Positions 1,853 through 46,024 of a stretch of 64,000 bases of DNA are shown piece by piece (the stretch's first letter is position 1; every line of letters begins with the position of its first letter). The position numbers and the translations under genes were made by a program. Origin of the DNA: a virus. Location: the IMG/VR virus record IMGVR_UViG_3300023296_001674; one strand, given 5' to 3'. The notes under the pieces are model-generated. The model had not been told where the DNA came from. It did no database searches and saw only the letters and a list, made by a program, of their open reading frames with translations.

Positions 1853-2503
1853 TTAGAATGTCATGCAATTTTCTATGACTCGAAGTTGAACATTTCCTAA
1901 ACTGCGATGTCTGGTTTGTTTTAGGTTGAGTTTGAATTTAATATCATCACTTTCTTCTAAGACTTTAGCAAACAGTTCGGGTTGCATTGTTAATCCAATA
2001 TACAATAACCGCATAGTGCTTAATATCTTTCTTATTGGTTTGTCGAGTACAACTATTTCCTTGCCGGTAATAAGTGCGATAAACTTATCAAGGTTCATAC
2101 AACCACGCACTGAGTTGCATTCGGAACAAGCCATAGCAAAGTTATGCTTGAAATTAGAACCACCTTTTGTCCTTGCAACAACATGTTCAACCGTGGCGCG
2201 GTTAGTGTCGTGGTGTGGAATCGCATCACCGTCGTCCAGTTTTGGATACCACATTGGGTCACCACAATAGCAGCATCTATGATTTTGTGCTTCTAATAAT
2301 TTGATATTGCGGCGGCGGAGAAATCGAGTATTTCTACCGCGTTTATTTTTACGCGTATTTTCTTTAGTTTTTTCTACGTTGCCACCATTAGCCGCATCAT
2401 TCTCGAGACGTAGCGCACGCACTTCTTCGAGAGACATGCCTTTTTCTCGCTCACGTTTGTGTTTTCGTTTTTCGGTTCGTCTGAGTTTTCCTAATGGTGT
2501 CAT
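1853..2503 (-). CDS. HNH endonuclease with basic N-terminal region
   Basis: CxxC...HHDTNRATVEHVVARTKGGSNFKHNFAMACSECNSVRG = HNH motif. Confidence 0.75.
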   Translation of the reverse strand: MTPLGKLRRTEKRKHKREREKGMSLEEVRALRLENDAANGGNVEKTKENTRKNKRGRNTRFLRRRNIKLLEAQNHRCCYCGDPMWYPKLDDGDAIPHHDTNRATVEHVVARTKGGSNFKHNFAMACSECNSVRGCMNLDKFIALITGKEIVVLDKPIRKILSTMRLLYIGLTMQPELFAKVLEESDDIKFKLNLKQTRHRSLGNVQLRVIENCMTF

Positions 2504-2556
2504 TACAAATCCTTTCAGTGGGGATAGTATAGAACCATCCCCACTGATGTCAAGGG

Positions 2557-3096
2557 TTATCGCATTTGTTTATGAATCAGTGAACCACCGTTTGGCTTAC
2601 GCTTACACTTAGGGTGATATCGATTTTCTGCGTTTGCAAGTTTACGCTGTCTTGGTATCACTGTGCCACAATCTTTGCATGTATATGTATGCTTTGCGAC
2701 TTTCTTGCGTATTTCGTTAAGAATGGTAGATGAACCACATCGTTTAACGTTCGTTATTCCAAGATCAAACATTATTACACGCCATTCTCTACCATGTGCA
2801 GCAATCTTTCTGCCATTGATATAAGAACCAAATCGTTCTTTGACGAGTATGTGTGCTGTTTCATGTAGCAGTGTGTTAATAAAATCATCCATTTCTTCTG
2901 GTTTCACTGCACCATGCAAATAATATTCGCTGGTTACTTCGACCAGTTTCTTGGAATACTTACAGCAACCAAAGCGATTCTTTGCACGCCAATTGATTGC
3001 GAATTTCCATTGTTCTAATGCATCAAAATCATCACCAGCCGCGTTTCTAACACGATCTAATAAATCGAATTTTTCAAGATATGTAAGAAGTTTCAT
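2557..3096 (-). CDS. SprT-like zinc metallopeptidase-domain protein with C-terminal zinc ribbon
   Basis: LLHETAHILV (HExxH) ...HGREW; C-terminal CKDCG...HPKCK. Confidence 0.6.
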   Translation of the reverse strand: MKLLTYLEKFDLLDRVRNAAGDDFDALEQWKFAINWRAKNRFGCCKYSKKLVEVTSEYYLHGAVKPEEMDDFINTLLHETAHILVKERFGSYINGRKIAAHGREWRVIMFDLGITNVKRCGSSTILNEIRKKVAKHTYTCKDCGTVIPRQRKLANAENRYHPKCKRKPNGGSLIHKQMR

Positions 3097-4159: not shown

Positions 4160-4208
4160 TTGACATAGCCCCTTGACTTCCCTACTATACTGGTAGGGAG
4201 GGATGAGG
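4160..4208 (+). repeat. E-element copy 1 (sigma70-like promoter + TAGGGAGGGATGAGG box), plus orientation
   Basis: TTGACA-N17-TACTAT then ctggTAGGGAGGGATGAGG; one of 12 copies of this module. Confidence 0.6.
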
Positions 4209-5002: not shown

Positions 5003-6511
5003 ATGCAAATACCAGAAATCACACTTTCAACGCAGCAAGTTAATATTCTTGATTGGGTTAAATCAGGAAAAGGTAATGTCATTATCGAAGCTGTAGCTGG
5101 CAGTGGTAAGACCTTCACATTGGTTGAAGCCGTTAAGTTGATGGTAGGCACTGTATTCCTTGGTGCTTATAACTCTGCTATGGGTTATGAGTTGAAGGAA
5201 AAAACCAAGGGCATGAAAAATGTTCGGGCTGGCACGTTCCATAGTGCAGGCTTTGGCGCACTTCAATATCGTTACGGAAAAATGCAAGTTGATGCTAACA
5301 AAGTGCGAGATATCGTTAATGGTATGGCGGAGGGCGACGACTTGTTTGCTGTATACGGCAACTTCATTAACAAGATGGTAGCACTTGCCAAGGATTCCGG
5401 CATTGGGTTCTTTAATAAAATTAACGACCCTATCATGTGGAATGAACTTGTTGATAAGCACGACCTTATGGATCAACTCGACGAACACTTAACAGTTGAT
5501 GTTGGTATTCAGTTATCAATGGACGTCTTAAAGGCATCTAACTCTAATCTTAAAGTTATTGATTTTAGTGATATGATTTATCTTGTATTGTTAAACAACC
5601 TCCGCCTTTTCCAACAAGATTGGGTTTTGGTTGACGAAGCCCAAGATACCAATAGCACGCGACGCGCACTGGCAAAGAAAATGTTAAAACCCGGTGGGCG
5701 TTTGATCGCGGTTGGTGATCCTCGCCAAGCAATCTTTGGCTTCACTGGTGCTGATTCCGATGCGCTGGACTTGATCTCCAAGGACTTCGGTACAACGACG
5801 CTTCCTTTGACTAGCACGTTCCGTTGCCCTAAATCGGTTGTTAAACACGCCCAACAATGGGTATCACACATTGAAGCGTATGATACTAATATCGAAGGCG
5901 AAGTTATCAACGCTAAATTCGACGACGTGTTCGGTGAAAAATCCGAATATAAGTTTACCGGTTCCGATGCAATCATTTGCCGCCTTAACGCGCCTATCGT
6001 TGAACTTGCATTCAAGTTGATTCGTAAGGGTGTTCCTTGCCGCATTGAAGGTAGAGATATCGGCACACAACTTGCAGCACTTGCAAACAAGTGGAAAGTA
6101 GTCCGCCTTGACGCCTTACGCAATCGCCTTGAGAAGTATAAGGAACGTGAAGTATCTAAGGCTATGGCAAAAGGGCAAGAACAGAAAGCCGGTAGCATTA
6201 CTGACCGCGTGGGCTGCCTTAATGTTCTTATCGAACGCGCCGAAGAAAAGAAACTTGACGTTGCTGGTTTGATTGTAATGATCAAGGGCATGTTTTCAGA
6301 CGCCCAAGATAAAACCACAAATAAGAACATTTTGGTTTTATCATCCGTTCATAAATCAAAAGGTAAAGAATGGCCTAGAGTGTTCTTGTTAGGACGCCAA
6401 GAAAATATGCCAAGTCCTTTTGCTAGACAGACATGGCAACTTTTACAAGAGGATAACCTTATCTACGTTGCTGTAACGAGGGCGATGGAAACGTTAATCG
6501 AAGTGGATTAA
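5003..6511 (+). CDS. SF1 UvrD/PcrA-like DNA helicase
   Basis: AVAGSGKTFTL (Walker A), VDEAQDTN, GDPRQAIFGFTGA, TFRCP, VLSSVHKSKGKEWPRVFL. Confidence 0.8.
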   Translation: MQIPEITLSTQQVNILDWVKSGKGNVIIEAVAGSGKTFTLVEAVKLMVGTVFLGAYNSAMGYELKEKTKGMKNVRAGTFHSAGFGALQYRYGKMQVDANKVRDIVNGMAEGDDLFAVYGNFINKMVALAKDSGIGFFNKINDPIMWNELVDKHDLMDQLDEHLTVDVGIQLSMDVLKASNSNLKVIDFSDMIYLVLLNNLRLFQQDWVLVDEAQDTNSTRRALAKKMLKPGGRLIAVGDPRQAIFGFTGADSDALDLISKDFGTTTLPLTSTFRCPKSVVKHAQQWVSHIEAYDTNIEGEVINAKFDDVFGEKSEYKFTGSDAIICRLNAPIVELAFKLIRKGVPCRIEGRDIGTQLAALANKWKVVRLDALRNRLEKYKEREVSKAMAKGQEQKAGSITDRVGCLNVLIERAEEKKLDVAGLIVMIKGMFSDAQDKTTNKNILVLSSVHKSKGKEWPRVFLLGRQENMPSPFARQTWQLLQEDNLIYVAVTRAMETLIEVD

Positions 6512-6536
6512 CTATGGTTTTTTGATAAATACTTAT

Positions 6537-7271
6537 ATGGTAAAACGCAAAACAACAGAACAGTTTATACAAGAATCGACTGCAATTCATGGTGATGTAT
6601 ATGATTATTCATTGACCAATTATATCAATAGACGTACCAAAGTAAAAATAATATGCACCGTTCATGGTATATATGAACAAACTGCGGGAAATCATTTATA
6701 TCAAAAACAAGGTTGCTCAAAATGTGCCGGTGATAAACAGGCATCGAGACAGCGAAAATCACTATCACAGTTTATTCAAGAGGCAACAATAGTTCACGAT
6801 TCTTTATATGATTATTCGTTGGTGGATTACAATCATACTGATATAAAAGTAAAAATAATATGCCCAACGCATGATATATTTAAGCAAACGCCGCATGATC
6901 ATTTACATGGAAAAGGTTGCCCTAAATGCGTTCATACTATATCAAAAGGTGAAACTAACTGGCTTAATCGCATTGGTTTACCAGACGATACACAACATAG
7001 ACAAGTGCGCTTGCCTATGAATAATAATAAAAATCGAAGGGTTGATGGTTATGATCCATTAACCAATACTGTTTATGAATTTCATGGTGATTACTGGCAT
7101 GGCAACCCCGCACGTTTTAATCTCGATGATATAAACCCAACCATTAAAAAACCATACAGACAACTCTATGAAGCCACCTTAACCAAGGAAGTGCTTATCA
7201 AAGATTCCGGTTATAATCTTGTAGTTATGTGGGAGCATGATTGGAAAGCTCATCCCTCCCTAACAGTATAA
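6537..7271 (+). CDS. homing-endonuclease-like protein (tandem zinc-ribbon-like repeats + C-terminal EDxHD/Vsr-like nuclease motif)
   Basis: Two repeats KVKIICxxHGIFxQTPxxHLxGKGCxKC; C-terminus VDGYDPLTNTVYEFHGDYWHGNP; paralog of 11698..12435 and 1..239; start uncertain (track gives TTG 6522). Confidence 0.6.
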   Translation: MVKRKTTEQFIQESTAIHGDVYDYSLTNYINRRTKVKIICTVHGIYEQTAGNHLYQKQGCSKCAGDKQASRQRKSLSQFIQEATIVHDSLYDYSLVDYNHTDIKVKIICPTHDIFKQTPHDHLHGKGCPKCVHTISKGETNWLNRIGLPDDTQHRQVRLPMNNNKNRRVDGYDPLTNTVYEFHGDYWHGNPARFNLDDINPTIKKPYRQLYEATLTKEVLIKDSGYNLVVMWEHDWKAHPSLTV

Positions 7272-7404
7272 TATTAAATTACTCGTAAAAAAGCAATGAT
7301 TATTTTTATAATATGACGTAAATTACTTGTTGACATTGGTTCAGTTAGTTTGTAATATCTTTTTATCAGAACATCATACATTCACAAATGAAAGATTGAA
7401 AATA

Positions 7405-7824
7405 ATGCCAACATATCGAAAAAGAATACTCATATCAGAATTCGCTGAACCAGAAATATTTTTTGAATATAAAGGTGTGAAAATATATCATACTTATACA
7501 GACAATGCTGAAACACTTTCATCATTGAATTTTGACCGTGATTGTAAAAGCAAGCGGTTGTTTACCACGAACAAAAAATGCGGCATGGTTCCCATGTTTG
7601 ATGTTTATTTTGAAAACGATCTTCGTGTATGGGACAAACAATCAAAAAATGAAACCCGTGGGGTGTTTAACATTCAAAACATTCCAAATCCTAAAGGGCA
7701 TCATATTACGACTCATGCTGGTATTTCAAGAGTTCTTATGGAAGCAATTGACACCGGTTGGATTAAAACTAATAAAACACCAGAGTGTATTCACGATTGT
7801 CATATACTCGCACATCCAAAATAA
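7405..7824 (+). CDS. hypothetical protein (Cys/His-rich C-terminus)
   Basis: Track ORF trimmed; TTGACA-N17-TAATAT ~7330-7358. Confidence 0.5.
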   Translation: MPTYRKRILISEFAEPEIFFEYKGVKIYHTYTDNAETLSSLNFDRDCKSKRLFTTNKKCGMVPMFDVYFENDLRVWDKQSKNETRGVFNIQNIPNPKGHHITTHAGISRVLMEAIDTGWIKTNKTPECIHDCHILAHPK

Positions 7825-8426: not shown

Positions 8427-8473
8427 CTCATCCCTCCCTATCAGCATAATAGCAGGGTCAATAGATAAGTCAA
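8427..8473 (-). repeat. E-element copy 2, minus orientation
   Basis: plus strand reads aaaaaaaGCTCATCCCTCCCTATCAG..CATAAT..N17..AGTCAA; i.e. minus-strand TTGACT-N17-ATTATG-ctgaTAGGGAGGGATGAGC-T7; ~90% identical to copy at 18201. Confidence 0.6.
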
Positions 8474-10452: not shown

Positions 10453-10577
10453 TATTAAAGATAAAACCAATCTTTTTTTCTATCATCTTTTAAATATTTA
10501 ATAGTTGACAAACTGAAATAATTTGGTATAGTTAAATCATCAACAAACACAAACAACGAAAGAAGAGGCTTAAGACG

Positions 10578-10775
10578 ATGGGTAAAACATTTTCGCGTGA
10601 TCCAGATAGTGACAATTATGCAGGTGGACATATGAAGGCAAATCGCCAAGAAACAAAATTCCGCCGACAAAAATCGGTTCGGAAAGATGCATTGCTAGAC
10701 GAAAGCATGCAACCTGATGAACCAACTTATGGCAAACACACGGATGATTTTAGCCCACGGAAAGACGGCTGGTAA
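10578..10775 (+). CDS. hypothetical basic protein
   Basis: ORF track; TTGACA-N17-TATAGT ~10505-10533; terminator 10781-10812. Confidence 0.55.
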   Translation: MGKTFSRDPDSDNYAGGHMKANRQETKFRRQKSVRKDALLDESMQPDEPTYGKHTDDFSPRKDGW

Positions 10776-10941
10776 TCAATTAAAAAGGGAAGCAGAAATG
10801 CTTCCCTTTTTTTATGCTTGACACTGGTTTAGTTAATTGCTATGTTAAATCGTCGTTGCCCAAGAAAGCGGGTTGATAAAGACTTGACTGACACTACGAA
10901 GTGTTCTATTGATTAATCATAACAACAAAAAGGAACCGAGT

Positions 10942-11301: not shown

Positions 11302-11704
11302 AGCCGTAACGCAATATGAAACATTCGACGGAAAAGTATTCTCCGACGAAAATGCCGCTGAACAATGGGAACGCAATACAAATAAAGCAAACGCAATCAT
11401 ATCGATGTTTCCGAACAACGGTCATCTTTCATCTGGCGATTTCTATCAGTTATCAAGAGATTTGATTAGCACCGCGAGAATTAAACTTGCCGATGCTTTA
11501 ACTCGTGGCGGCTTCGATGACGAAATGATTAAAGCATTTCGTGATAATACCAGCGATGTAATCGGACGCTATCTCGACGACGGCGGTTCAACATATTATA
11601 AAGCATGGTGGTTATTTTCTTGTATTGACAATCAAGGGCGGATGTTCAATCAACCGTTCTTTGCCAATAATCCAAGAGAAATAAGAGATGAAGTTTCCTA
11701 TTGA
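11294..11704 (+). CDS. hypothetical protein
   Basis: ORF track; overlaps upstream by 8 nt. Confidence 0.55.
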   Translation: MPKAVTQYETFDGKVFSDENAAEQWERNTNKANAIISMFPNNGHLSSGDFYQLSRDLISTARIKLADALTRGGFDDEMIKAFRDNTSDVIGRYLDDGGSTYYKAWWLFSCIDNQGRMFNQPFFANNPREIRDEVSY

Positions 11705-12435
11705 TTCTTCCAATCATTTTCCCATATCGTGACAAGATTATAGCCGTGAGATTTAATAAGAGTCTCACGGTTCATAGTCTTTTGATATAACTCGCCGAAT
11801 GATTTTTTATTATTGGTGTTGATATGTTCGGGATTGTGTGTATTAGGATTCCCATGCCAATAATCACCATAGAACTCATATATGGTATTTGTGTCAGGGT
11901 CATAACCGTCTGGATATATCCATTGATTATTTAATATTAAAGTTCGTCGCCTATAATCATTTGTATCAGGTAATCCAATATGATCAAGCCACGATTTTTC
12001 CATATATGATTTATTCTGTATAGTTAATGGTCGCAACATAATGGCGCACTTATTACATCCATGATTTAAATGTGCTGATGGTTCTTGTTGAAATATTCCA
12101 TGTTCAGGGCAAATGATATTCACCTTTGTATGCGTGTTATGATAATCAACTAATGAATAATTATATTTATCGCCATGTTTTATCAACGATTTTTGTATAA
12201 ATTTTAATGTAGTTCCCCGTATTTTATCTGAATTATTTTTTATTGCACATTTAATACAGCCTTTTCCACTACTAGTGTGCGAACAAGGCGTCTGTTCAAA
12301 TATTCCATGAGTTGTGCATATTATTTTAACTTTGGTATGGGCGGCAATATATATAGACAATGAATAGTCATATCTATCACCATGAATGGCGATAGCATCT
12401 TGAATGAATTTTGAGGTAGTTTTTCTTCTTGACAT
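11698..12435 (-). CDS. homing-endonuclease-like protein (paralog of 6537..7271)
   Basis: MSRRKTTSKFIQDAIAIHGDRYDYSL..KVKIICTTHGIFEQTP..GKGCIKCA, second repeat, C-terminus YEFYGDYWHGNP. Confidence 0.65.
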   Translation of the reverse strand: MSRRKTTSKFIQDAIAIHGDRYDYSLSIYIAAHTKVKIICTTHGIFEQTPCSHTSSGKGCIKCAIKNNSDKIRGTTLKFIQKSLIKHGDKYNYSLVDYHNTHTKVNIICPEHGIFQQEPSAHLNHGCNKCAIMLRPLTIQNKSYMEKSWLDHIGLPDTNDYRRRTLILNNQWIYPDGYDPDTNTIYEFYGDYWHGNPNTHNPEHINTNNKKSFGELYQKTMNRETLIKSHGYNLVTIWENDWKNQ

Positions 12436-18091: not shown

Positions 18092-18177
18092 GTGTGTCAT
18101 AAATGACACAGGTGTGATATAATTATCACACATTGAAAACTGCCTCGATTGGTGGTGTATTCATACCGATAAAAAAA

Positions 18178-18212: not shown

Positions 18213-18248
18213 TTGACTCTGTTATTATACTGGTAGGGAGGGATGACC
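18201..18248 (+). repeat. E-element copy 3, plus orientation
   Basis: TTGACT-N17-ATTATA-ctgGTAGGGAGGGATGACC-T5. Confidence 0.6.
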
Positions 18249-19556: not shown

Positions 19557-19608
19557 AAAGGAGACGGGGTTCGCCCCGTTTTCTTTTAGGTATATATTCC
19601 AGAAAAAA

Positions 19609-19655
19609 CTCATCCCTCCCTACCGTAATAATACCACAATCAACCAAAGAGTCAA
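19609..19655 (-). repeat. E-element copy 4, minus orientation
   Basis: plus: aaaaaaCTCATCCCTCCCTACCGtAATAAT..N17..AGTCAA. Confidence 0.6.
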
Positions 19656-19671
19656 GCGTTAAAGACAAAAA

Positions 19672-19788
19672 AAGACCCGCCAATTATTAGCGAGTCTTTT
19701 TTCTTTCTCAGGGTACGCCCTCCGATAGCCGAAGGGCAAAATGAATTCGCTACTTAACCGATCCCTCAATTATTTTCGCTGCATCAGA
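19672..19788 (-). ncRNA. candidate ~115-nt minus-strand small RNA (promoter-to-terminator unit, no ORF)
   Basis: Minus-strand TTGACT-N17-TATATT (plus 19795-19823) reads leftward into hairpin gactcgc-taataattg-gcgggtc+T7 (plus 19673-19702); internal GCCCUUCGGC..GGGC structure; no plausible ORF. Confidence 0.3.
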
Positions 19789-19899
19789 AGTTATAATATA
19801 CCACCTACATTAAAAAGAGTCAACATCTATTATTCGCTTGACTATGGTTCAGTTATGTTCTATGTTTAATCATCAATAACAAATAGAAAGGTTTCAACC

Positions 19900-20445
19900 A
19901 TGAAAATCAAACACGCAAAATTCGGACTGGCAGCAAAGAACATCAAGGTATCTGATACGGATGATGGATATATGTGGAGTGCATCTTTTTATCTTGATGG
20001 TGCAAAAATTGGAACTGCACACGATCAAGGGCATGGCGGCGAAATGAATACACGCGGCATAGATAAAACGGCAATGGCGAAAATCGAAACATATGCGGCA
20101 AGTTTGCCACATGATACCACTTACGGACTCGATATGGCACAAAGTGCCGAAATTGTTCTTGAAGAAAACGCAATGAGTACCGATTCATTCAACAGCGTTC
20201 TAAAGAAAACAAAAGCCGCATTGCGAAAGAAAGTTATGGCAAAAGGTAATAAAGAAGGAATTTTTCGCACTTGGAAAATTCCCACTGGTATGACTGCTGA
20301 AACGAAAATGACTAAACTCCGCGAACAAAAAATCGGTGAAACGTTTGAATTTTTGAACGAACTACCACCAGAAGATGCAATGGATTTTCTTTATGTGGTT
20401 GAACCAGAACCCGATTTTAGCAAGCCGTTTGAACTGGTAACATAA
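19900..20445 (+). CDS. hypothetical protein
   Basis: ORF track; promoter TTGACT ~19838; terminator 20453-20482. Confidence 0.6.
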   Translation: MKIKHAKFGLAAKNIKVSDTDDGYMWSASFYLDGAKIGTAHDQGHGGEMNTRGIDKTAMAKIETYAASLPHDTTYGLDMAQSAEIVLEENAMSTDSFNSVLKKTKAALRKKVMAKGNKEGIFRTWKIPTGMTAETKMTKLREQKIGETFEFLNELPPEDAMDFLYVVEPEPDFSKPFELVT

Positions 20446-20506: not shown

Positions 20507-20554
20507 CTCATCCCTCCCTATCATCACAATACGACCTAACTGTATCAAAGTCAA
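20507..20554 (-). repeat. E-element copy 5, minus orientation
   Basis: plus: aaaatGCTCATCCCTCCCTATCAtCACAAT...AGTCAA. Confidence 0.55.
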
Positions 20555-24519: not shown

Positions 24520-24629
24520 AAGTTTCATGGTAAACTAAGGGTTTTCCCCTACCCGGTGAATTGAGCGCAAGTTCTTCATCGGGATTTTTTTGTCTTGACA
24601 TTATTAAAACGTCGTGGTATAGTTAAATC

Positions 24630-24743
24630 TAAATAGGGTGAAAGTTCAGTTAGACCTAGTTCAAGTAGCCCGAACATTATAAAGATGAATAATTCTTAAA
24701 CAAACATAAAGGGAAACACCGGAATGATTCCGGTGTTTTTTTG
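24630..24743 (+). ncRNA. candidate ~114-nt plus-strand small RNA
   Basis: TTGACA-N17-TATAGT (24595-24623) then no ORF beyond 4 codons, ending at hairpin aacaccggaatgattccggtgtt+T7 (24716-24743). Confidence 0.3.
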
Positions 24744-24750
24744 TCTGGAA

Positions 24751-24820
24751 CCCATAGCATCAACAGGTTTTTTCCTATAGCATCAACAGGTTTTTTCCTA
24801 TAGCATCTATGGAATTTTCC
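24751..24820. repeat. three tandem ~23-bp direct repeats (iteron-like)
   Basis: cccatagcatcaacaggttttttc / ctatagcatcaacaggttttttc / ctatagcatctatggaattttcc; CCATAG and its complement CTATGG recur through 24850. Confidence 0.6.
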
Positions 24821-24880: not shown

Positions 24881-25327
24881 ATGATTACCGGAAGTCGCGC
24901 ACGAATATTGGCAGAAACCACTTGGGGAACTGGTGGGACTCACTCTGCAAGAACCAATCGCAAAGGTGCATTCTATTATTCGTGTTCAGGACATGGTGGA
25001 TACATCGTCGACGGTAATGCCCTAACCGTTGCGGAGCGTGATCACATAGACCGATTTAAAAAACCTGAATATGTATGGGCAATTATCAACGATGAAACCA
25101 GTGCGGTTCGTAAAACATCGAACCCGTTTTCAACTAAACGTTTCTTTGCCCATATGCGCGTAGGTGAAAGACTGGACAAAAACTATCCGATTTATTATTT
25201 TGAAGAAGATTGCGACTGGTCAATCCTTGAAAAGTTCACTGACATTCGCGCAGGTGGTAAGGATACCGACGCAGATACAATTCTCAATATATTCTATCGC
25301 TGGTGCCATGATCGCGAGGCGGCATAA
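24881..25327 (+). CDS. hypothetical protein
   Basis: Track ORF trimmed; promoter TTGACT-N17-TATGGT ~24824-24852; followed by 13-bp perfect palindrome 25335-25362. Confidence 0.55.
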   Translation: MITGSRARILAETTWGTGGTHSARTNRKGAFYYSCSGHGGYIVDGNALTVAERDHIDRFKKPEYVWAIINDETSAVRKTSNPFSTKRFFAHMRVGERLDKNYPIYYFEEDCDWSILEKFTDIRAGGKDTDADTILNIFYRWCHDREAA

Positions 25328-25382: not shown

Positions 25383-25428
25383 TGCATTATCGATTGACTC
25401 GTGTATGATCATATCAGGGAGGGATCAG
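25383..25428 (+). repeat. E-element copy (variant), plus orientation
   Basis: TTGCAT..TATGAT..catatCAGGGAGGGATCAGcg-T6. Confidence 0.45.
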
Positions 25429-26054: not shown

Positions 26055-26069
26055 CCGATTCATACAAGG

Positions 26070-26104
26070 AAAAGAAAGTCAAGAGAAATCTTGACTTTCT
26101 TTTC
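26070..26104 (+). terminator. rho-independent terminator (repeated hairpin type containing TTGAC)
   Basis: gAAAGTCAAGAgaaaTCTTGACTTTCttttcg; same core hairpin at 27834-27872. Confidence 0.6.
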
Positions 26105-26152: not shown

Positions 26153-26201
26153 CTCATCCCTCCCTGATACAAAATTACCACGTTTACCCCATACGAGTCA
26201 A
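26153..26201 (-). repeat. E-element copy 6, minus orientation
   Basis: plus: aaaaaaaaCTCATCCCTCCCTGATAC...GAGTCAA. Confidence 0.55.
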
Positions 26202-26292
26202 CACTTAATTTATTTTTATTTAGGGGGTTGACTCATCTGATGCCTACCTTTATAACTACAAATAGAAACCAACCACATAAGGAATTGCCCAC

Positions 26293-26648: not shown

Positions 26649-26677
26649 GGTATAAAATCCGTAGGGGGGGATGAGCC
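26649..26677 (+). repeat. degenerate E-like box (GGGGGGG variant)
   Basis: gtggTATAAAatccGTAGGGGGGGATGAGCC. Confidence 0.3.
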
Positions 26678-26790
26678 GATTTTATCATCAAAATTTATTT
26701 TAATAATAGTGCATTTAGGGGGTTGACTCATCTGATGCCTACCTTTATAACTACAAATAGAAACCAACCACAACCCCGAAGGAACTTATC

Positions 26791-27228: not shown

Positions 27229-27277
27229 GACATCCCTCCCTATGGTGATATTAGCACTATTGCCCAAACAGAGTCAA
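27229..27277 (-). repeat. E-element copy 8 (GACATCC variant), minus orientation
   Basis: plus: aaaaaaaaGACATCCCTCCCTATGGTGATATTA..N18..AGTCAA. Confidence 0.55.
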
Positions 27278-27333: not shown

Positions 27334-27375
27334 TACAAGTCAACCCCCTATTTTAATTCATTTAAGGGGTTGACT
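27334..27375. repeat. 11-bp perfect inverted repeat around promoter -35
   Basis: GAGTCAACCCCctattttaattcatttaaGGGGTTGACTC. Confidence 0.5.
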
Positions 27376-27821: not shown

Positions 27822-27833
27822 GCACAAGGAAAA

Positions 27834-27872
27834 AGGAGAGTCAAGAGAAATCTTGACTTTTCTTTTTTTATT
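27834..27872 (+). terminator. rho-independent terminator (second copy of TTGAC-containing hairpin)
   Basis: ggAGAGTCAAGAgaaaTCTTGACTtttcttttttt. Confidence 0.6.
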
Positions 27873-27891
27873 TTTTCCGCCGCCAAAAAAA

Positions 27892-27939
27892 GGTCATCCC
27901 TCCCTACCACCATAATACACTATTCGAACAACGAGTCAA
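27892..27939 (-). repeat. E-element copy 9, minus orientation
   Basis: plus: aaaaaaaGGTCATCCCTCCCTACCACCATAATAC..N17..GAGTCAA. Confidence 0.6.
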
Positions 27940-27944
27940 GACTA

Positions 27945-28072
27945 TAAACGGGGAACCACGAATGATTCCCCGTTTTCTTTTCTATAATGGCTTGGCTTGC
28001 CGTGTCGCCAGACGATTAGATCATGATGTCAAATCCTTCCGTTAATTTTTATCCGGTGTTTGAACTTACTCT
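27945..28072 (-). ncRNA. candidate ~125-nt minus-strand small RNA
   Basis: Minus TTGACA-N16-TATTAT (plus 28080-28107) reading left into hairpin aaacggggaaccacgaatgattccccgttt (27947-27976); no ORF. Confidence 0.3.
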
Positions 28073-28180
28073 CTACACCATAATACATTAAACAAAATAG
28101 ATGTCAACACTTATTTTAGGGGTTGACACTAACAATCGAAACCGCTATAACTGTATCAACTTAACCAAAAGGAACACCCA

Positions 28181-30282: not shown

Positions 30283-30329
30283 TTGACTCCGGCATTTTTC
30301 CTGCTAATATACTATCAGGGAGGGATGAG
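30283..30329 (+). repeat. E-element copy 11, plus orientation (its -35 lies in the upstream terminator stem)
   Basis: CCGGAGTCActtaggtgTTGACTCCGGcatttttcctgctAATATActaTCAGGGAGGGATGAG. Confidence 0.6.
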
Positions 30330-31363: not shown

Positions 31364-31387
31364 ATCAAAACCAGAGTCACTTAGGTG

Positions 31388-31434
31388 TTGACTCTGGATT
31401 TCTTTCTGCTATTATACTGTCAGGGAGGGATGAC
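31388..31434 (+). repeat. E-element copy 12, plus orientation
   Basis: CCAGAGTCActtaggtgTTGACTCTGGatttctttctgctATTATActgTCAGGGAGGGATGAC. Confidence 0.6.
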
Positions 31435-31461
31435 TTTATTTTATTCCCGCACTTATAATAA

Positions 31462-31556
31462 AAGCCAGACTCGCGTCTGACCTTTATCCTTTCTTTCTAT
31501 CCGGTTTATGTCCGCCACGTCGGGTCGGAACTATGTATCGCCGAACGCGTCGGCTA
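31462..31556 (-). ncRNA. candidate ~95-nt minus-strand small RNA
   Basis: Minus TTGACA-N16-TATTAT (plus 31564-31591) converging on bidirectional hairpin gccagactcgcgtctgacc (31464-31482); E-copy-12 transcript converges from the other side. Confidence 0.3.
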
Positions 31557-31672
31557 GATTTATATAATACCACAACAACCAAACATGTCAACAAAAAAGA
31601 TTCAATAATAACACTTGACTCCGTTTGGGTTGGGTGTATACTATCCATAGATTGAAACAAAGGATTAATCAA

Positions 31673-32756: not shown

Positions 32757-32807
32757 CGCCAGAACCGAGTCAAGCACTTATTTCACGGTGTTGCACTTAT
32801 GACACAG

Positions 32808-32855
32808 TCAAGTCTTTTATTATAAAATAAAAATAAAAAAAGACTTGACATTCGA
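32808..32855. repeat. 13-bp perfect inverted repeat with AT-only loop
   Basis: GTCAAGTCTTTTTattataaaataaaaataAAAAAGACTTGAC. Confidence 0.55.
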
Positions 32856-32939
32856 AAAAAAGAGTGCTCGTGCAGTGTTTTGAAGTTTTTTATTTAATGG
32901 ATACCTTACCCTTAGCTCGAAATACGCCAAAATTTTTCA

Positions 32940-33075
32940 GGCTAAATCGGAACTCTGGCTATCGTGACACTTATCGTGACAAAATGTCGCGATACCATTA
33001 TAATGGGTCATTTATTCATCCTATCGTGACATTTGACCCATTATAATGGGTCAATACACCCCCCACCCCCTTTTC
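32940..33075. repeat. cluster of short repeats and palindromes at early-region/AT-island boundary
   Basis: TATCGTGACA x3 (one inverted as TGTCGCGATA); palindromic CCCATTATAATGGG x2 (second within 22-bp palindrome TTGACCCATTATAATGGGTCAA); then C6AC5. Confidence 0.55.
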
Positions 33076-33163
33076 TATGAAACACTTATTCATTCAATAT
33101 AAAAAAAATTCTGCGCCAAAATTTTAATAAATAATATTAGGTTTTTAACATAGGAACATTTAA

Positions 33164-39152: not shown

Positions 39153-39536
39153 ATGAAAAAATTATTATTAGCGGCAACACTTATGGTATTGCCATTTACT
39201 GCGATGGCAGAAGAACAAACAGTTGGAATGTCTGCTACATTTATGTGTAGAGTGGCATCAACAGTAGACGCGCATTTAACTAGATTGGGTTATACCAAAG
39301 GTGTTGAACTTGATGGATTAAATATGGGAACCATTATTATATGGTACGGAACAGAAAACGGCATCAAATCTTGGATGCTTACTGCGAATACACCCAATGG
39401 TTTAACTTGCAAATTAGATAATGGTTATGTTGATCTCAAAAACCCAACCGAAACTACTCCTGAATCGTCAAAACCAAAACTGGATGAAGAATCATTAAAG
39501 AAAATGATGGACAACGCGAAAAAAGACTCACTTTAA
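39153..39536 (+). CDS. secreted protein
   Basis: Signal peptide MKKLLLAATLMVLPFTAMA. Confidence 0.55.
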   Translation: MKKLLLAATLMVLPFTAMAEEQTVGMSATFMCRVASTVDAHLTRLGYTKGVELDGLNMGTIIIWYGTENGIKSWMLTANTPNGLTCKLDNGYVDLKNPTETTPESSKPKLDEESLKKMMDNAKKDSL

Positions 39537-40207
39537 CATTTGATTATATAAATATAATTTGGAAAATTGACCGACTTCAATCTCCTTCTTACAGTTTCTT
39601 CGCCGAGTTTTAATATTTTTGCCGACTCGATGACTGATGAATATATAACGTCGTCTATTTTAACAGATTTTTTGCGATGATTATTTTCTGGATGTTTTCC
39701 ATATAACGGATGTTTATCACCGATTTTTCCATACATGCCATTTTTTTCACCAGAATTTTTTTCACTTATTTTTTGTTTAGTTTCATCTGTTCTTGGCACA
39801 CCGAATAATGGATTATTTTTTCCAGTTCTGCCCCACATTGGATTATTTTTTCCTTTCATTTTCTCTGCAAATTTAGGTCTTTTAACACCTGTTCTGTTGG
39901 GTGGTCTTCTATCAACGCAAATATTAGTAAGTATGCCATTTTTGTCATAACCATTTCGACCAAGTTTTTTAATCCACGTTTTTTCTAAATCATATGCATC
40001 CTTTTCTGGCATATTTTTTTCTATGAATTTAACACCAGGTTCTAATCCTTCTTTTCGTATCGCATTTATTTTATTCCATTTTTGTATATTTTCTGTTGTG
40101 TGTATAGTTTCCGTCAGATGTCTCTTCCATCGGTCTTTTGATCCTTTTCCTATATAAAATTCTATATTATCATGTCTTGGGTCTAGCAATGCGTATACGT
40201 AATACAT
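39533..40207 (-). CDS. GIY-YIG homing endonuclease with NUMOD3-type repeats
   Basis: MYYVYALLDPR..FYIGKGSKDRWKRH; repeated GKNNPMWG/KNNPLFG/KHPLYG motifs. Confidence 0.75.
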   Translation of the reverse strand: MYYVYALLDPRHDNIEFYIGKGSKDRWKRHLTETIHTTENIQKWNKINAIRKEGLEPGVKFIEKNMPEKDAYDLEKTWIKKLGRNGYDKNGILTNICVDRRPPNRTGVKRPKFAEKMKGKNNPMWGRTGKNNPLFGVPRTDETKQKISEKNSGEKNGMYGKIGDKHPLYGKHPENNHRKKSVKIDDVIYSSVIESAKILKLGEETVRRRLKSVNFPNYIYIIKC

Positions 40208-40642: not shown

Positions 40643-41120
40643 TAAGTTCTACGCTTACAAAACCTTCTGATTTTGTAGGTCGTTCGTATGTTTCTATCAT
40701 TTGGTTAACTATCTTGTCGCTAACACTTTTACCAGTTTCGTTCTGGCGCTTTTCAAGGCGGCGGAACAATTCGTCATAATCCAATTCGAATGCAACTGCC
40801 TTATGAACATACTTAGGGGTTTGCAACATCTTCTTACGACGAATTTTAATCGAAAGGTTAGTTTGATCCCAAATGATGTGTTTTTTTTTGTTGACAGCCT
40901 CGCGCAGAGCGATGTTGAACTTAGTCTTAGTTTTGAACGGCAACTTGTAGAATGCTTCAGAGTAGGTGATACCTTGCTCCGCAGCATACTTTTCAATGAA
41001 GACGTCGGTGCTAATAACGGTCCAATCGTTTGAATCGTTTTCCATGAACTGCTTAATCCAAGTTGATTTACCGGAACCTGGTGGTCCGATTAACATCATA
41101 ATTGTTGGTTTGTGTAACAT
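40632..41120 (-). CDS. P-loop polynucleotide-kinase-like protein (T4 Pnk kinase-domain-like; no phosphatase domain)
   Basis: IMMLIGPPGSGKSTWIKQF; VISTDVF; IIWDQTNLS; LEKRQNETG pattern parallels T4 Pnk N-domain. Confidence 0.55.
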   Translation of the reverse strand: MLHKPTIMMLIGPPGSGKSTWIKQFMENDSNDWTVISTDVFIEKYAAEQGITYSEAFYKLPFKTKTKFNIALREAVNKKKHIIWDQTNLSIKIRRKKMLQTPKYVHKAVAFELDYDELFRRLEKRQNETGKSVSDKIVNQMIETYERPTKSEGFVSVELIIS

Positions 41121-44858: not shown

Positions 44859-45330
44859 AATGAATGATATACAATTGAGTGGAAATTTTAAATTATCAGA
44901 GTTGGTTAAGTCAGATACGGCGGAAAGGTTAGATATTGATAACTGGCCCACAGACAATGATACTATTGAAGCGTTAAGGGTGACAGCAAACAGAATATTG
45001 CAGCCCGTCAGAATGAATTACGGTATTTCTTTTTCGCCTACTAGCGGGTTTCGTTGCTTAACCTTGAATAGAGCATTAAAATCGAAAGATACATCTGATC
45101 ATGTTTTAGGTAGAGCAGTAGATTTTGAAGTACCAGGAATACCAAATAAAGATTTGGCTGTGTGGATACGAGATAACCTATCTTTTGATCAGGTTATATT
45201 AGAATTTTGGGATGGGATAAATCCAAACTCTGGGTGGGTGCATTGTTCTTTTAGATCAGAAACTGAAAATAGAAATCAGTGTTTAACTATTAATAAAAAT
45301 GGCGTATTTAATGGATTTAGAGCAAATTAA
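44851..45330 (+). CDS. peptidase M15-like zinc peptidase (candidate cell-wall hydrolase/endolysin)
   Basis: SDHVLGRAVDFEV (S-x-H-x2-G-x-A-x-D) typical of M15 family. Confidence 0.5.
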   Translation: MNKMNDIQLSGNFKLSELVKSDTAERLDIDNWPTDNDTIEALRVTANRILQPVRMNYGISFSPTSGFRCLTLNRALKSKDTSDHVLGRAVDFEVPGIPNKDLAVWIRDNLSFDQVILEFWDGINPNSGWVHCSFRSETENRNQCLTINKNGVFNGFRAN

Positions 45331-46024
45331 ACAAGAAATTTATTATTTATATGAAATTGAAAATATTATCAATGGAAAGAAATATATCGGATATACTAAT
45401 AATCCAAGACTTCGCCAAAAAGCACATTTTGTTTGGAAAAATAGTGGGTCTATATTGGTTGAACATGCTATTAAAAAATATGGATTAGATTCATTGCGGT
45501 TTAAAATACTTGTTAAATCAGACAATGAAGTATATATTAAAGATTTAGAAATTGCAGCCATTAGCTCTCTTAATACCAAAGCACCACAAGGGTATAATTT
45601 AACTGATGGCGGCGAAGGAACTCGTGGTTTGACATTATCTGATAATCAAAAAGCAGATAGAAGTAAAAACATGAAAGGTAAAATGATTGGTGAGAAAAAT
45701 CCCTTTTATGGAAAGAAACATGATCCAGAAACTCTAAAAAGAATGGTAGAAACTAGAAGAAAAAATGGATCATATGTTGCGTGGAATAAAGGCGGCGGAC
45801 ATAAATTAAGTGCTAAAAGTCGCAAAAGTCTCCGTGAAAACAGACCTGTTGGCGGGACAAAAAATCCAAACGCCAAGTTGACGGAAGAAAAAGTACGAGA
45901 AATATATAATCTAAAAGGACAAATGACTGGTGAAAAGGTCGTCATGTTCTTAGGTTTGAATGTATCTGGTGAGACCGTTAGACGTATATGGAATAGAACT
46001 ACATGGTCGAGTTTAGTATATTAA
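45299..46024 (+). CDS. GIY-YIG homing endonuclease with NUMOD-like motifs
   Basis: IYYLYEIENIINGKKYIGYTNNPRLRQKAHF; GEKNPFYGKKH. Confidence 0.7.
   Translation: MAYLMDLEQIKQEIYYLYEIENIINGKKYIGYTNNPRLRQKAHFVWKNSGSILVEHAIKKYGLDSLRFKILVKSDNEVYIKDLEIAAISSLNTKAPQGYNLTDGGEGTRGLTLSDNQKADRSKNMKGKMIGEKNPFYGKKHDPETLKRMVETRRKNGSYVAWNKGGGHKLSAKSRKSLRENRPVGGTKNPNAKLTEEKVREIYNLKGQMTGEKVVMFLGLNVSGETVRRIWNRTTWSSLVY

Follow-up and report, generated by a model that had tools for sequence, protein, structure and literature searches.

Predicted short transcription units without open reading frames in the accessory gene array of a very large phage-like genome

The DNA analysed here (the window) is a stretch of 64,000 nt from the virus record IMGVR_UViG_3300023296_001674 of IMG/VR. 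Its first 34 kb form an array of small plus-strand accessory genes, some of them with anti-restriction-type domains. Between about 12.6 and 34 kb all credible genes are small and lie on the plus strand, as an initial annotation of the DNA had remarked of the genes nearby. Most genes of the array have their own TTGACa-N16-18-TAtaaT promoter, a ACGAAAGGA-type ribosome site and a hairpin terminator. With a sigma70-type promoter and a terminator for each gene, the array is presumably transcribed by the host RNA polymerase. Four junctions of this array hold, in addition, a compact unit that appears to consist of a promoter of the same class, 100-130 nt without an open reading frame (ORF) and a dedicated intrinsic terminator tuned by G-U pairs. 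Units 1, 2 and 3 are on the minus strand and unit 4 is on the plus strand (Table 1). The three minus-strand units adjoin copies of a second recurrent feature, here called the E-element.

Promoter-like hexamers are common in this DNA, and counting them is not informative: between 17 and 34 kb the minus strand has 6 sites matching at least 10 of 12 positions where 3.4 are expected, which is not beyond chance. As these counts were unconvincing, a genome-specific position weight matrix (PWM) of two blocks was trained on the 28 plus-strand gene promoters of the window that do not belong to E-elements. The minus-strand unit promoters, which lie exactly where the initial annotation had placed them, then rank second (unit 2, 22.3 bits), third (unit 3, 22.2 bits) and fourth (unit 1, 20.5 bits) among all minus-strand positions in 34 kb, and the remaining top ranks are occupied by E-elements and by the promoter of one real minus-strand gene. 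In simulated sequence, at most 0.03 hits with such scores are expected per 34-kb strand. Unit 4, previously proposed at 24595-24743, is likewise present, with a promoter and a terminator in the plus orientation. Like a generic small RNA (sRNA) gene, the units therefore have predicted promoters of their own.

They also have their own intrinsic terminators on the transcribed strand, with hairpins of -12 to -17 kcal/mol. These terminators had been described as symmetric, which folding contradicts. In the minus sense the hairpin of unit 1 reaches -14.9 kcal/mol versus -7.3 in the plus sense (with 8 versus 4 T residues in the tail), that of unit 2 -17.1 versus -12.8, and that of unit 3 -12.0 versus -6.1, so that the terminators of units 1-3 are 4-8 kcal/mol stronger in the minus sense, whereas ordinary gene terminators are biased the opposite way. 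The G-U pairs turn into A-C mismatches on the other strand, and the terminators are thus directional. The U-tail of unit 2 is weak (UUUAUAG), and the hairpin of unit 3 is common to the RNA of a converging E-element (about 25 nt). A-rich tracts, as expected of an Hfq-type site, precede all four terminators on the 5′ side, but the A-run of two-way terminators would account for them just as well.

No protein-coding capacity was found in the units. There are stops in all minus frames, and the only ORFs of at least 20 amino acids read through the terminators and have no Shine-Dalgarno (SD) sequence. The predicted transcripts of units 1-3 (about 121, 128 and 102 nt) agree with the ORF-less transcripts of roughly 95-125 nt that had been proposed. 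A candidate fifth unit at 10505-10811 was rejected; it holds an ORF of 65 amino acids with an SD and is an ordinary gene.

The junctions holding units are long, with gaps of 309-359 nt versus roughly 60-110 nt at ordinary junctions. Units 1 and 2 lie between an E promoter and the promoter of the next plus-strand gene and are wholly intergenic; they overlap no plus-strand ORF that has an SD or a conserved coding signal. Unit 3 overlaps an opposite transcript only in the shared terminator. The units had been called antisense-direction small RNAs, yet they are antisense to no gene. Each promoter of the three minus-strand units, like each promoter of a minus-oriented E-element, stands back-to-back with a plus-strand gene promoter at 14-26 bp, the -35 hexamers at unit 1 being 14 bp apart. 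The adjacency to E-elements is as initially reported: the E -35 hexamer begins 6-9 nt past the terminators of units 1 and 2, and at 31.4 kb a plus-oriented E-element converges on unit 3 at one hairpin. The three minus-strand units would be transcribed away from the next gene's promoter and would halt just before, or against, an E-element. Between the terminator of unit 4 and the next gene promoter there is a direct repeat, CATAGCATCAACAGGTTTTTTCCTATAG, in two to three copies (24745-24815). Taken together, the strong promoters of the genome's own type, the strand-tuned terminators and the maintenance of the extra DNA favour dedicated transcription units.

Relatives were reached through protein homologues, namely L055 and L056, whose ArdC is 72% identical, and L059, in which a neighbour protein is 67% identical. 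A second contig, L060, is identical to L059, and the comparison of unit 1 is thus between two distinct sequences, the window and L059. The whole compound junction is kept in L059 in the same order: gene terminator, minus-oriented E-element, unit terminator, body, unit promoter, plus promoter and gene. The proteins flanking unit 1 are 68-80% identical between the two, and the fourfold-degenerate sites of four flanking genes are 33-58% identical, so that neutral positions are near saturation. At this distance the L059 homologue (transcript 6476-6591 on the minus strand, promoter 6625-6598) retains both the -35 and the -10 hexamer around a spacer altered in sequence and length (17 versus 16 nt). 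The terminator is 79% identical with both G-U pairs retained, and the body has 81 nt in the window and 77 nt in L059.

Some of the interior of unit 1 is conserved as well. Two islands, GAUGnAGCGAAAA and AAGUAGCGnAAUCA, match at 12/13 and 12/14 positions; two islands of at least 12/14 would arise by chance with p near 0.005 at a 45% background, by a rough binomial that ignores alignment optimisation. The GCCC...GGGC stem-loop noted in the initial annotation is also found in L059, with 8 bp instead of 9 and with changed inner pairs (U-A to C-G, C-G to U-A and U-G to C-G). Folding and covariation had been suggested as a check, and this stem shows compensatory changes, in two distinct sequences only. 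Folded without its terminator, the body of unit 1 has z = -0.8 in the window; the value for L059 is -2.6. On neither strand do the two share an ORF or show codon 3-periodicity in their substitutions; the unit 1 homologue of L059 thus lacks the intact minus-strand ORF that would have marked the unit as a gene remnant. A plus-strand ORF of 42 amino acids within unit 1 (19741-19869) was rejected, since it shows no third-position enrichment relative to L059 and has no start codon there. At the same junction the promoter of the following plus-strand gene is 80% identical. The E-element RNA is 88-92% and the E promoter 79% identical, and the E-element is the most strongly conserved non-coding sequence of the junction.

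In its layout, unit 1 has two single-stranded AGCG(A/G)AA islands and a conserved hairpin; an A-rich tract leads up to the terminator hairpin with its U-tail. By analogy, this resembles the layout of chaperone-dependent bacterial sRNAs. The internal constraint favours an RNA product with a function, and on the comparison with L059 unit 1 can be regarded as a supported case of a putative dedicated transcription unit without an ORF.

The other units are related to unit 1 by architecture. The recurrent arrangement had been taken to indicate a set of RNAs; the arrangement does recur, but the bodies of units 1-4 share no sequence, and their likeness in alignments is limited to promoters and terminators. 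Searches with blastn and tblastx gave no other match to the bodies in the window or in L055. With a covariance model built on unit 1, only unit 1 and its L059 orthologue are recovered, unit 2 scoring 15.8 bits (E = 0.075), and a single repeated RNA family across units 1-4 was not found. Rfam gave no match at the gathering score over 64 kb, and a permissive Rfam scan of 17-34 kb gave sub-threshold noise only (best 25.8 bits versus a threshold of 56); the phage pRNA, CRISPR direct-repeat, 6S, tmRNA and known sRNA families of Rfam are matched by none of the units. Searches of GenBank phages and plasmids with megablast and blastn returned no useful relatives.

Our preferred interpretation, to which we give a probability of about 40%, is that the units are lineage-specific genes for small non-coding RNAs, presumably made by the host RNA polymerase and acting in trans. 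They would be transcribed early, as soon as the host polymerase reads the array, and their RNAs would be stable and would either base-pair with RNAs of the host or phage or bind a host protein. Five other junctions with a minus-oriented E-element have that element alone, which suggests that the units add something beyond divergent transcription.

Several results weigh against this interpretation. First, the bodies of units 2, 3 and 4, taken without terminators, fold no better than shuffled sequences (z about 0), and no homologues of these bodies were found. Second, a target scan of the unit RNAs against 74 translation-initiation regions of the window gave none above shuffled controls. Third, the comparative support comes from one comparator and concerns one unit, and the body of this unit is 52% identical overall versus about 45% at neutral sites, which by this alignment does not clearly stand above neutral. 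Fourth, the two islands of unit 1, which read TTCGCT on the plus strand about 30 bp apart, could instead be sites at which a regulator of the adjacent plus promoter binds the DNA. Finally, unit 3 is missing at the syntenic ArdC junction of L055, which has a plus-oriented E-element and a gene promoter, and the short gaps upstream of the L055 and L059 homologues of gene 24881-25327 lack unit 4.

Further absences were seen in relatives. L055 has a more distant homologue of the 181-aa gene, preceded by a minus-oriented E-element and a gene promoter, with unit 1 missing. Distant homologues of the flanking proteins are found among tightly packed genes with no units. Unit 2 has no comparator, as every assembly with its neighbour is identical. 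Judging from these comparisons, the units are lineage-specific, like the mosaic accessory genes around them.

A role of the transcription itself, with the RNA as a by-product, is the main alternative, though somewhat unlikely. In such a role, supercoiling could activate the neighbouring promoter, polymerase could be recruited to it, or the E promoter could be insulated from transcription coming from upstream. The back-to-back spacing of all the minus-oriented unit and E promoters with plus gene promoters would follow naturally, as would the better conservation of the hexamers and terminator of unit 1 than of its body, and the unstructured, unrelated bodies of units 2-4. It leaves unexplained why a second unit of about 150 bp is present when five junctions diverge with an E-element alone, why the interior of unit 1 retains two islands and a compensated stem, and why unit 4 is co-directional with its neighbours instead of divergent.

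Rather less likely, the units are decayed cassettes, that is, inverted or co-directional promoter-SD-ORF-terminator cassettes whose ORF was deleted or degraded while the signals stayed intact without function. Inverted cassettes carrying real genes do exist elsewhere in the window (1853-3096 and 11698-12435), the units come and go between relatives as mosaic accessory genes do, and the 5′ island of unit 1, AGCGAAAAGG in L059, resembles the usual ACGAAAGGA SD context of the 5′ untranslated regions (UTRs) of the genes. Against decay, the promoter, G-U terminator, stem and body length of unit 1 survive near-saturated divergence, no frame has protein-like similarity or periodicity, and tblastx finds no relic of any window or L055 protein inside the units. 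The initial view that the units are discrete and not random decay is therefore upheld for unit 1 through L059, and finds no such backing in unit 3, missing in L055, or in unit 4, missing in both relatives.

It is improbable, though worth stating, that the units are RNA effectors of counter-defence or host takeover that work together with the E-element RNAs. The unit RNAs, recruited to a megaphage counter-defence island beside ArdC- and Macro-domain proteins, might then serve, for example, as decoys or sponges against a host defence that is guided by RNA or senses it, or against a host RNA chaperone, and the invariant 5′-terminal super-SD of the E RNAs might load or sequester 30S subunits. Units and E-elements would in that case make up a modular system of 'promoter-leader plus small RNA' cassettes, of which we know no description for huge phages.

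Control of neighbouring plus-strand transcripts in cis by antisense pairing, in the style of lambda OOP, is very improbable for the units. Their orientation is opposite to that of all nearby genes, unit 3 and the RNA of the plus-oriented E-element share about 25 nt of terminator, and the RNAs of the minus-oriented E-elements end within upstream mRNA terminators and are in that sense 3′-overlapping antisense partners. However, units 1 and 2 begin upstream of the plus-strand gene promoter and end short of the E promoter, overlapping no plus-strand ORF, 5′ UTR or terminator, and unit 4 is on the plus strand. Hardly credible is a chance origin of promoter-like and hairpin sequences, or unrecognised small-protein genes: simple 10/12 hexamer matches are expected about 3.4 times per 17-kb strand, but the PWM ranks, the intergenic location, the terminators at a fixed distance and the conservation of unit 1 speak against chance, as the lack of an SD-preceded ORF and of periodicity does against small proteins.

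Table 1. Units, E-elements and associated signals predicted in the window
Feature	Position	Strand	Details
Unit 1 promoter	19795..19823	-	-35 TTGACT 19823-19818, 17-nt spacer, TG-extended -10 TATATT 19800-19795
Unit 1 transcript (predicted)	19664..19788	-	~121 nt, non-coding; start ~19788 inferred from the -10 position
Unit 1 intrinsic terminator	19667..19703	-	A-run, GACUCGC...GCGGGUC stem with two G-U pairs, U7
Unit 1 internal stem-loop	19716..19738	-	UGCCCUUCG-GCUAU-CGGAGGGCG, 9 bp
E-element copy at unit 1	19557..19655	-	promoter 19655-19628, invariant start AGGGAGGGATGA 19621-19610
Promoter of plus gene 19900-20445	19838..19866	+	back-to-back with unit 1 promoter
Unit 2 promoter	28080..28107	-	TTGACA-16-TATTAT, AAAATAAGTG in front as in E promoters
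Unit 2 transcript (predicted)	27942..28074	-	~128 nt, no ORF; terminator hairpin 27948-27980
E-element copy at unit 2	27828..27939	-	promoter 27939-27912, core 27905-27894; RNA to gene terminator 27828-27869
Unit 3 promoter	31564..31591	-	TTGACA-16-TATTAT with TG
Unit 3 transcript (predicted)	31455..31558	-	~102 nt, no credible ORF; terminator 31462-31486
E-element copy at unit 3	31388..31486	+	promoter 31388-31415, core 31422-31433; short RNA to hairpin shared with unit 3
Unit 4 (predicted)	24595..24745	+	promoter 24595-24623, ORF-less RNA ~115 nt, terminator 24712-24740
Unit 4 promoter	24595-24623	+	TTGACA-17-TATAGT; PWM 23.3 bits
E motif copies	4195-4206, 7250-7261, 8428-8439, 18235-18246, 19610-19621, 20508-20519, 25416-25427, 26154-26165, 26663-26674, 27230-27241, 27894-27905, 30317-30328, 31422-31433		

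The E-element may be a more general and more unusual feature than the units. Its motif, AGGGAGGGATGA with one mismatch allowed, occurs 13 times in the window (6 plus, 7 minus) versus 0.14 expected, with 7 copies in L055 and 3 in L059. Every copy lies exactly 6 nt past a TG-extended -10 with a TTGACT -35 upstream, and in at least 20 copies from the window and the relatives the distance from the -10 hexamer to AGGGAGGGAT is exactly 6 nt. This fixed distance and the upstream -35 indicate that the E-element is a promoter with an invariant transcript start. In the copies of the relatives AGGGAGGGAT alone is invariant, and some of them have ATA or ATT in place of the ATG that follows it. After most plus-oriented copies come a second promoter and a gene. 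For minus-oriented copies the predicted RNAs are 50-95 nt long and run into the terminator of the upstream plus gene (at unit 1, about 60 nt, ending in the terminator at 19561-19584), and their 3′ ends would therefore be antisense to the 3′ end of that mRNA. The copy at 7261 has no terminator nearby and runs antisense into gene 6522-7271. The E leader pairs with the 16S anti-SD at -13 kcal/mol versus -6 to -9.5 for the SDs of genes, and by analogy the element may serve to stabilise the RNA from its 5′ end or to bind ribosomes as a leader.

Two other explanations of the E-element were considered and rejected. The mini-ORF ATG AGC TTT TTT TGG (MSFFW), present in most copies of the window, is not a gene, because the ATG is not conserved in the relatives; it is ATA, ATT or ATC in several copies, the SD abuts it, and the frames cross terminators without a consistent stop. 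A promoter for a T7-like single-subunit polymerase, suggested by the likeness to TAGGGAG, does not fit either, as positions -17 to -1 are unconserved beyond the extended -10 and a TTGACT -35 is present. Pattern scans for the E-element in IMG/VR, JGI metagenomes and GTDB genomes gave at most single chance hits. Another promoter-like site on the minus strand, TTGACT-18-TAAGAT (27338-27343 and 27272-27277), is located 66 nt upstream of the minus-oriented E promoter at 27277. No terminator separates the two, and the arrangement is tandem, unlike that at units 1 and 2.

The window derives from a phage-like genome of about 570 kb, since its proteins recur with identical sequence on metagenomic contigs of that size, for example ENA ERZ27315719 k141_202852 (570,549 bp). 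Other assemblies of the same phage are identical. Position 41020 of the window corresponds to position 1 of this contig; the window thus spans the break point of that assembly, which is consistent with a circular or permuted genome. No nucleotide match to the window was found in GenBank phages (megablast, blastn) or PLSDB plasmids, and the window has no tRNA or tmRNA. The domains found indicate a phage of very large size: GIY-YIG/NUMOD3 and HNH homing endonucleases and a Dam methyltransferase, besides a ligase-like protein, a GluRS-like protein, tail-fibre-type PHROG hits, a UvrD helicase, a Macro domain and ArdC. The ArdC protein had raised the idea of the leading region of a conjugative plasmid, which was rejected in favour of a phage on account of the homing endonucleases (GIY-YIG, HNH), the Dam methyltransferase, the ligase, the tail-fibre PHROG hits and the lack of a plasmid match. 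ArdC relatives in IMG/VR are all at most 40% identical and without E-elements. From about 34000 onwards the GC content drops from 0.40-0.44 to 0.33-0.36, the E-elements end, and minus-strand genes and homing endonucleases (39533-40207, 45299-46024) appear, as at a boundary of two genome modules.

The window holds other intergenic signals. Many terminator stems have the form GAGTCAA...TTGACTC, with a -35 hexamer within the hairpin arm (for example, 26069-26104, 27828-27869 and 31366-31396, and in L055 3216-3243 and 8994-9028), and GAGTCAAG occurs 13 times versus 0.68 expected. In this way a gene terminator also supplies the -35 hexamer of the promoter that comes next, on either strand. A promoter and 5′-UTR module, GGGGGTTGACTCATCTGATGCCTACCTTTATAACTACAAATAGAAACCAACCAC, is nearly identical before two consecutive genes (26205-26280 and 26715-26770), suggesting duplication or exchange of intergenic cassettes. 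At 18092-18135 of the window and 4805-4850 of L059, the palindromes GTGTCATAAATGACAC and GTGTGATATAATTATCACAC overlap a promoter-like site; they are kept in the relative and look operator-like, and a conserved minus-strand TTGACT/TATGAA site lies at about 18187. Downstream of ArdC, 32760-33160 belongs to an ORF-poor stretch of about 400-700 nt with repeats at about 32960-33050 (TATCGTGACA three times, CCATTATAATGGGTCA twice), which are iteron- or operator-like and could mark an origin or a regulatory region. Directly downstream of ArdC in L055 (11559-14006) are genes for two response-regulator receiver proteins and a sigma70 region-4 protein, and L059 has a Ros/MucR-type protein (7288-7671); these are possible phage-borne regulators of these promoter arrays.

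To our knowledge, the annotation of huge uncultured phages has dealt almost wholly with proteins, and next to nothing is known of their non-coding RNAs. Provided that they are expressed, the units would count among the earliest candidates for small-RNA genes in a phage of about 570 kb and would mark a region of very dense host-type transcription signals. Their exact predicted 5′ and 3′ ends form a set that can be tested in metatranscriptomes.

Several known systems are comparable. Lambda OOP, P22 sar and phi29 pRNA are the classical phage RNAs that run from promoter to terminator without an ORF. OOP RNA has 77 nt and overlaps the 3′ end of cII. Like OOP, the units have a constitutive-type sigma70 promoter and an intrinsic terminator, would yield an RNA of about 80-120 nt without an ORF, and are oriented against their neighbours; unlike OOP, units 1 and 2 do not overlap any gene or mapped UTR. 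Since the RNAs of the minus-oriented E-elements end in the terminator of the upstream gene, the OOP analogy fits these RNAs better than the units. In phi29, a strong early promoter drives a discrete ORF-less RNA, the pRNA, into a terminator, an arrangement shared by the units. Rfam has a phage pRNA family; the units have no Rfam match at the gathering score or at E up to 5, they differ from pRNA in size and genome position, and nothing points to a packaging role. RNA anti-CRISPRs are solitary repeat units carried by phages, small promoter-driven hairpin RNAs among counter-defence genes. The units might be likened to them, speculatively, in being small promoter-driven hairpin RNAs amid such genes, but they match no Rfam CRISPR direct-repeat family.

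For the E-element, the nearest parallel is the polypurine 5′ stabiliser, or STAB-SD, of Bacillus (Agaisse & Lereclus 1996 and Hue et al. 1995, as cited in PMC3997798); a strong SD stabilises mRNA even without a start codon (reviewed in PMC3997798). Like a STAB-SD, the E-element places a strong SD-like polypurine, AGGGAGGGAU, at the 5′ end of the transcript independently of a start codon, with the strong anti-SD pairing given above and an ATG that is dispensable in the relatives. It differs in that the sequence is at +1 and not inside the leader, and in that there are 13 repeats on both strands, seven of which head RNAs of only 50-95 nt.

Virulent phages commonly make antisense and other non-coding RNAs from their own start sites, as in PAK_P3, phiKZ, LUZ19, YuA and LUZ24 (PMC10914365). 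The units resemble these RNAs in being short, in having their own promoter, often opposite to a co-oriented gene block, and in encoding no protein; the function of the known RNAs is mostly unclear. Those RNAs were found by transcriptomics, whereas the units are predicted from sequence, and the units differ further in their dedicated minus-tuned terminators, their wholly intergenic position and their uncultured genome of about 570 kb. The units are in this respect new, mutually unrelated members of a known general kind, the ORF-less RNAs of phages, and stand outside the described RNA families.

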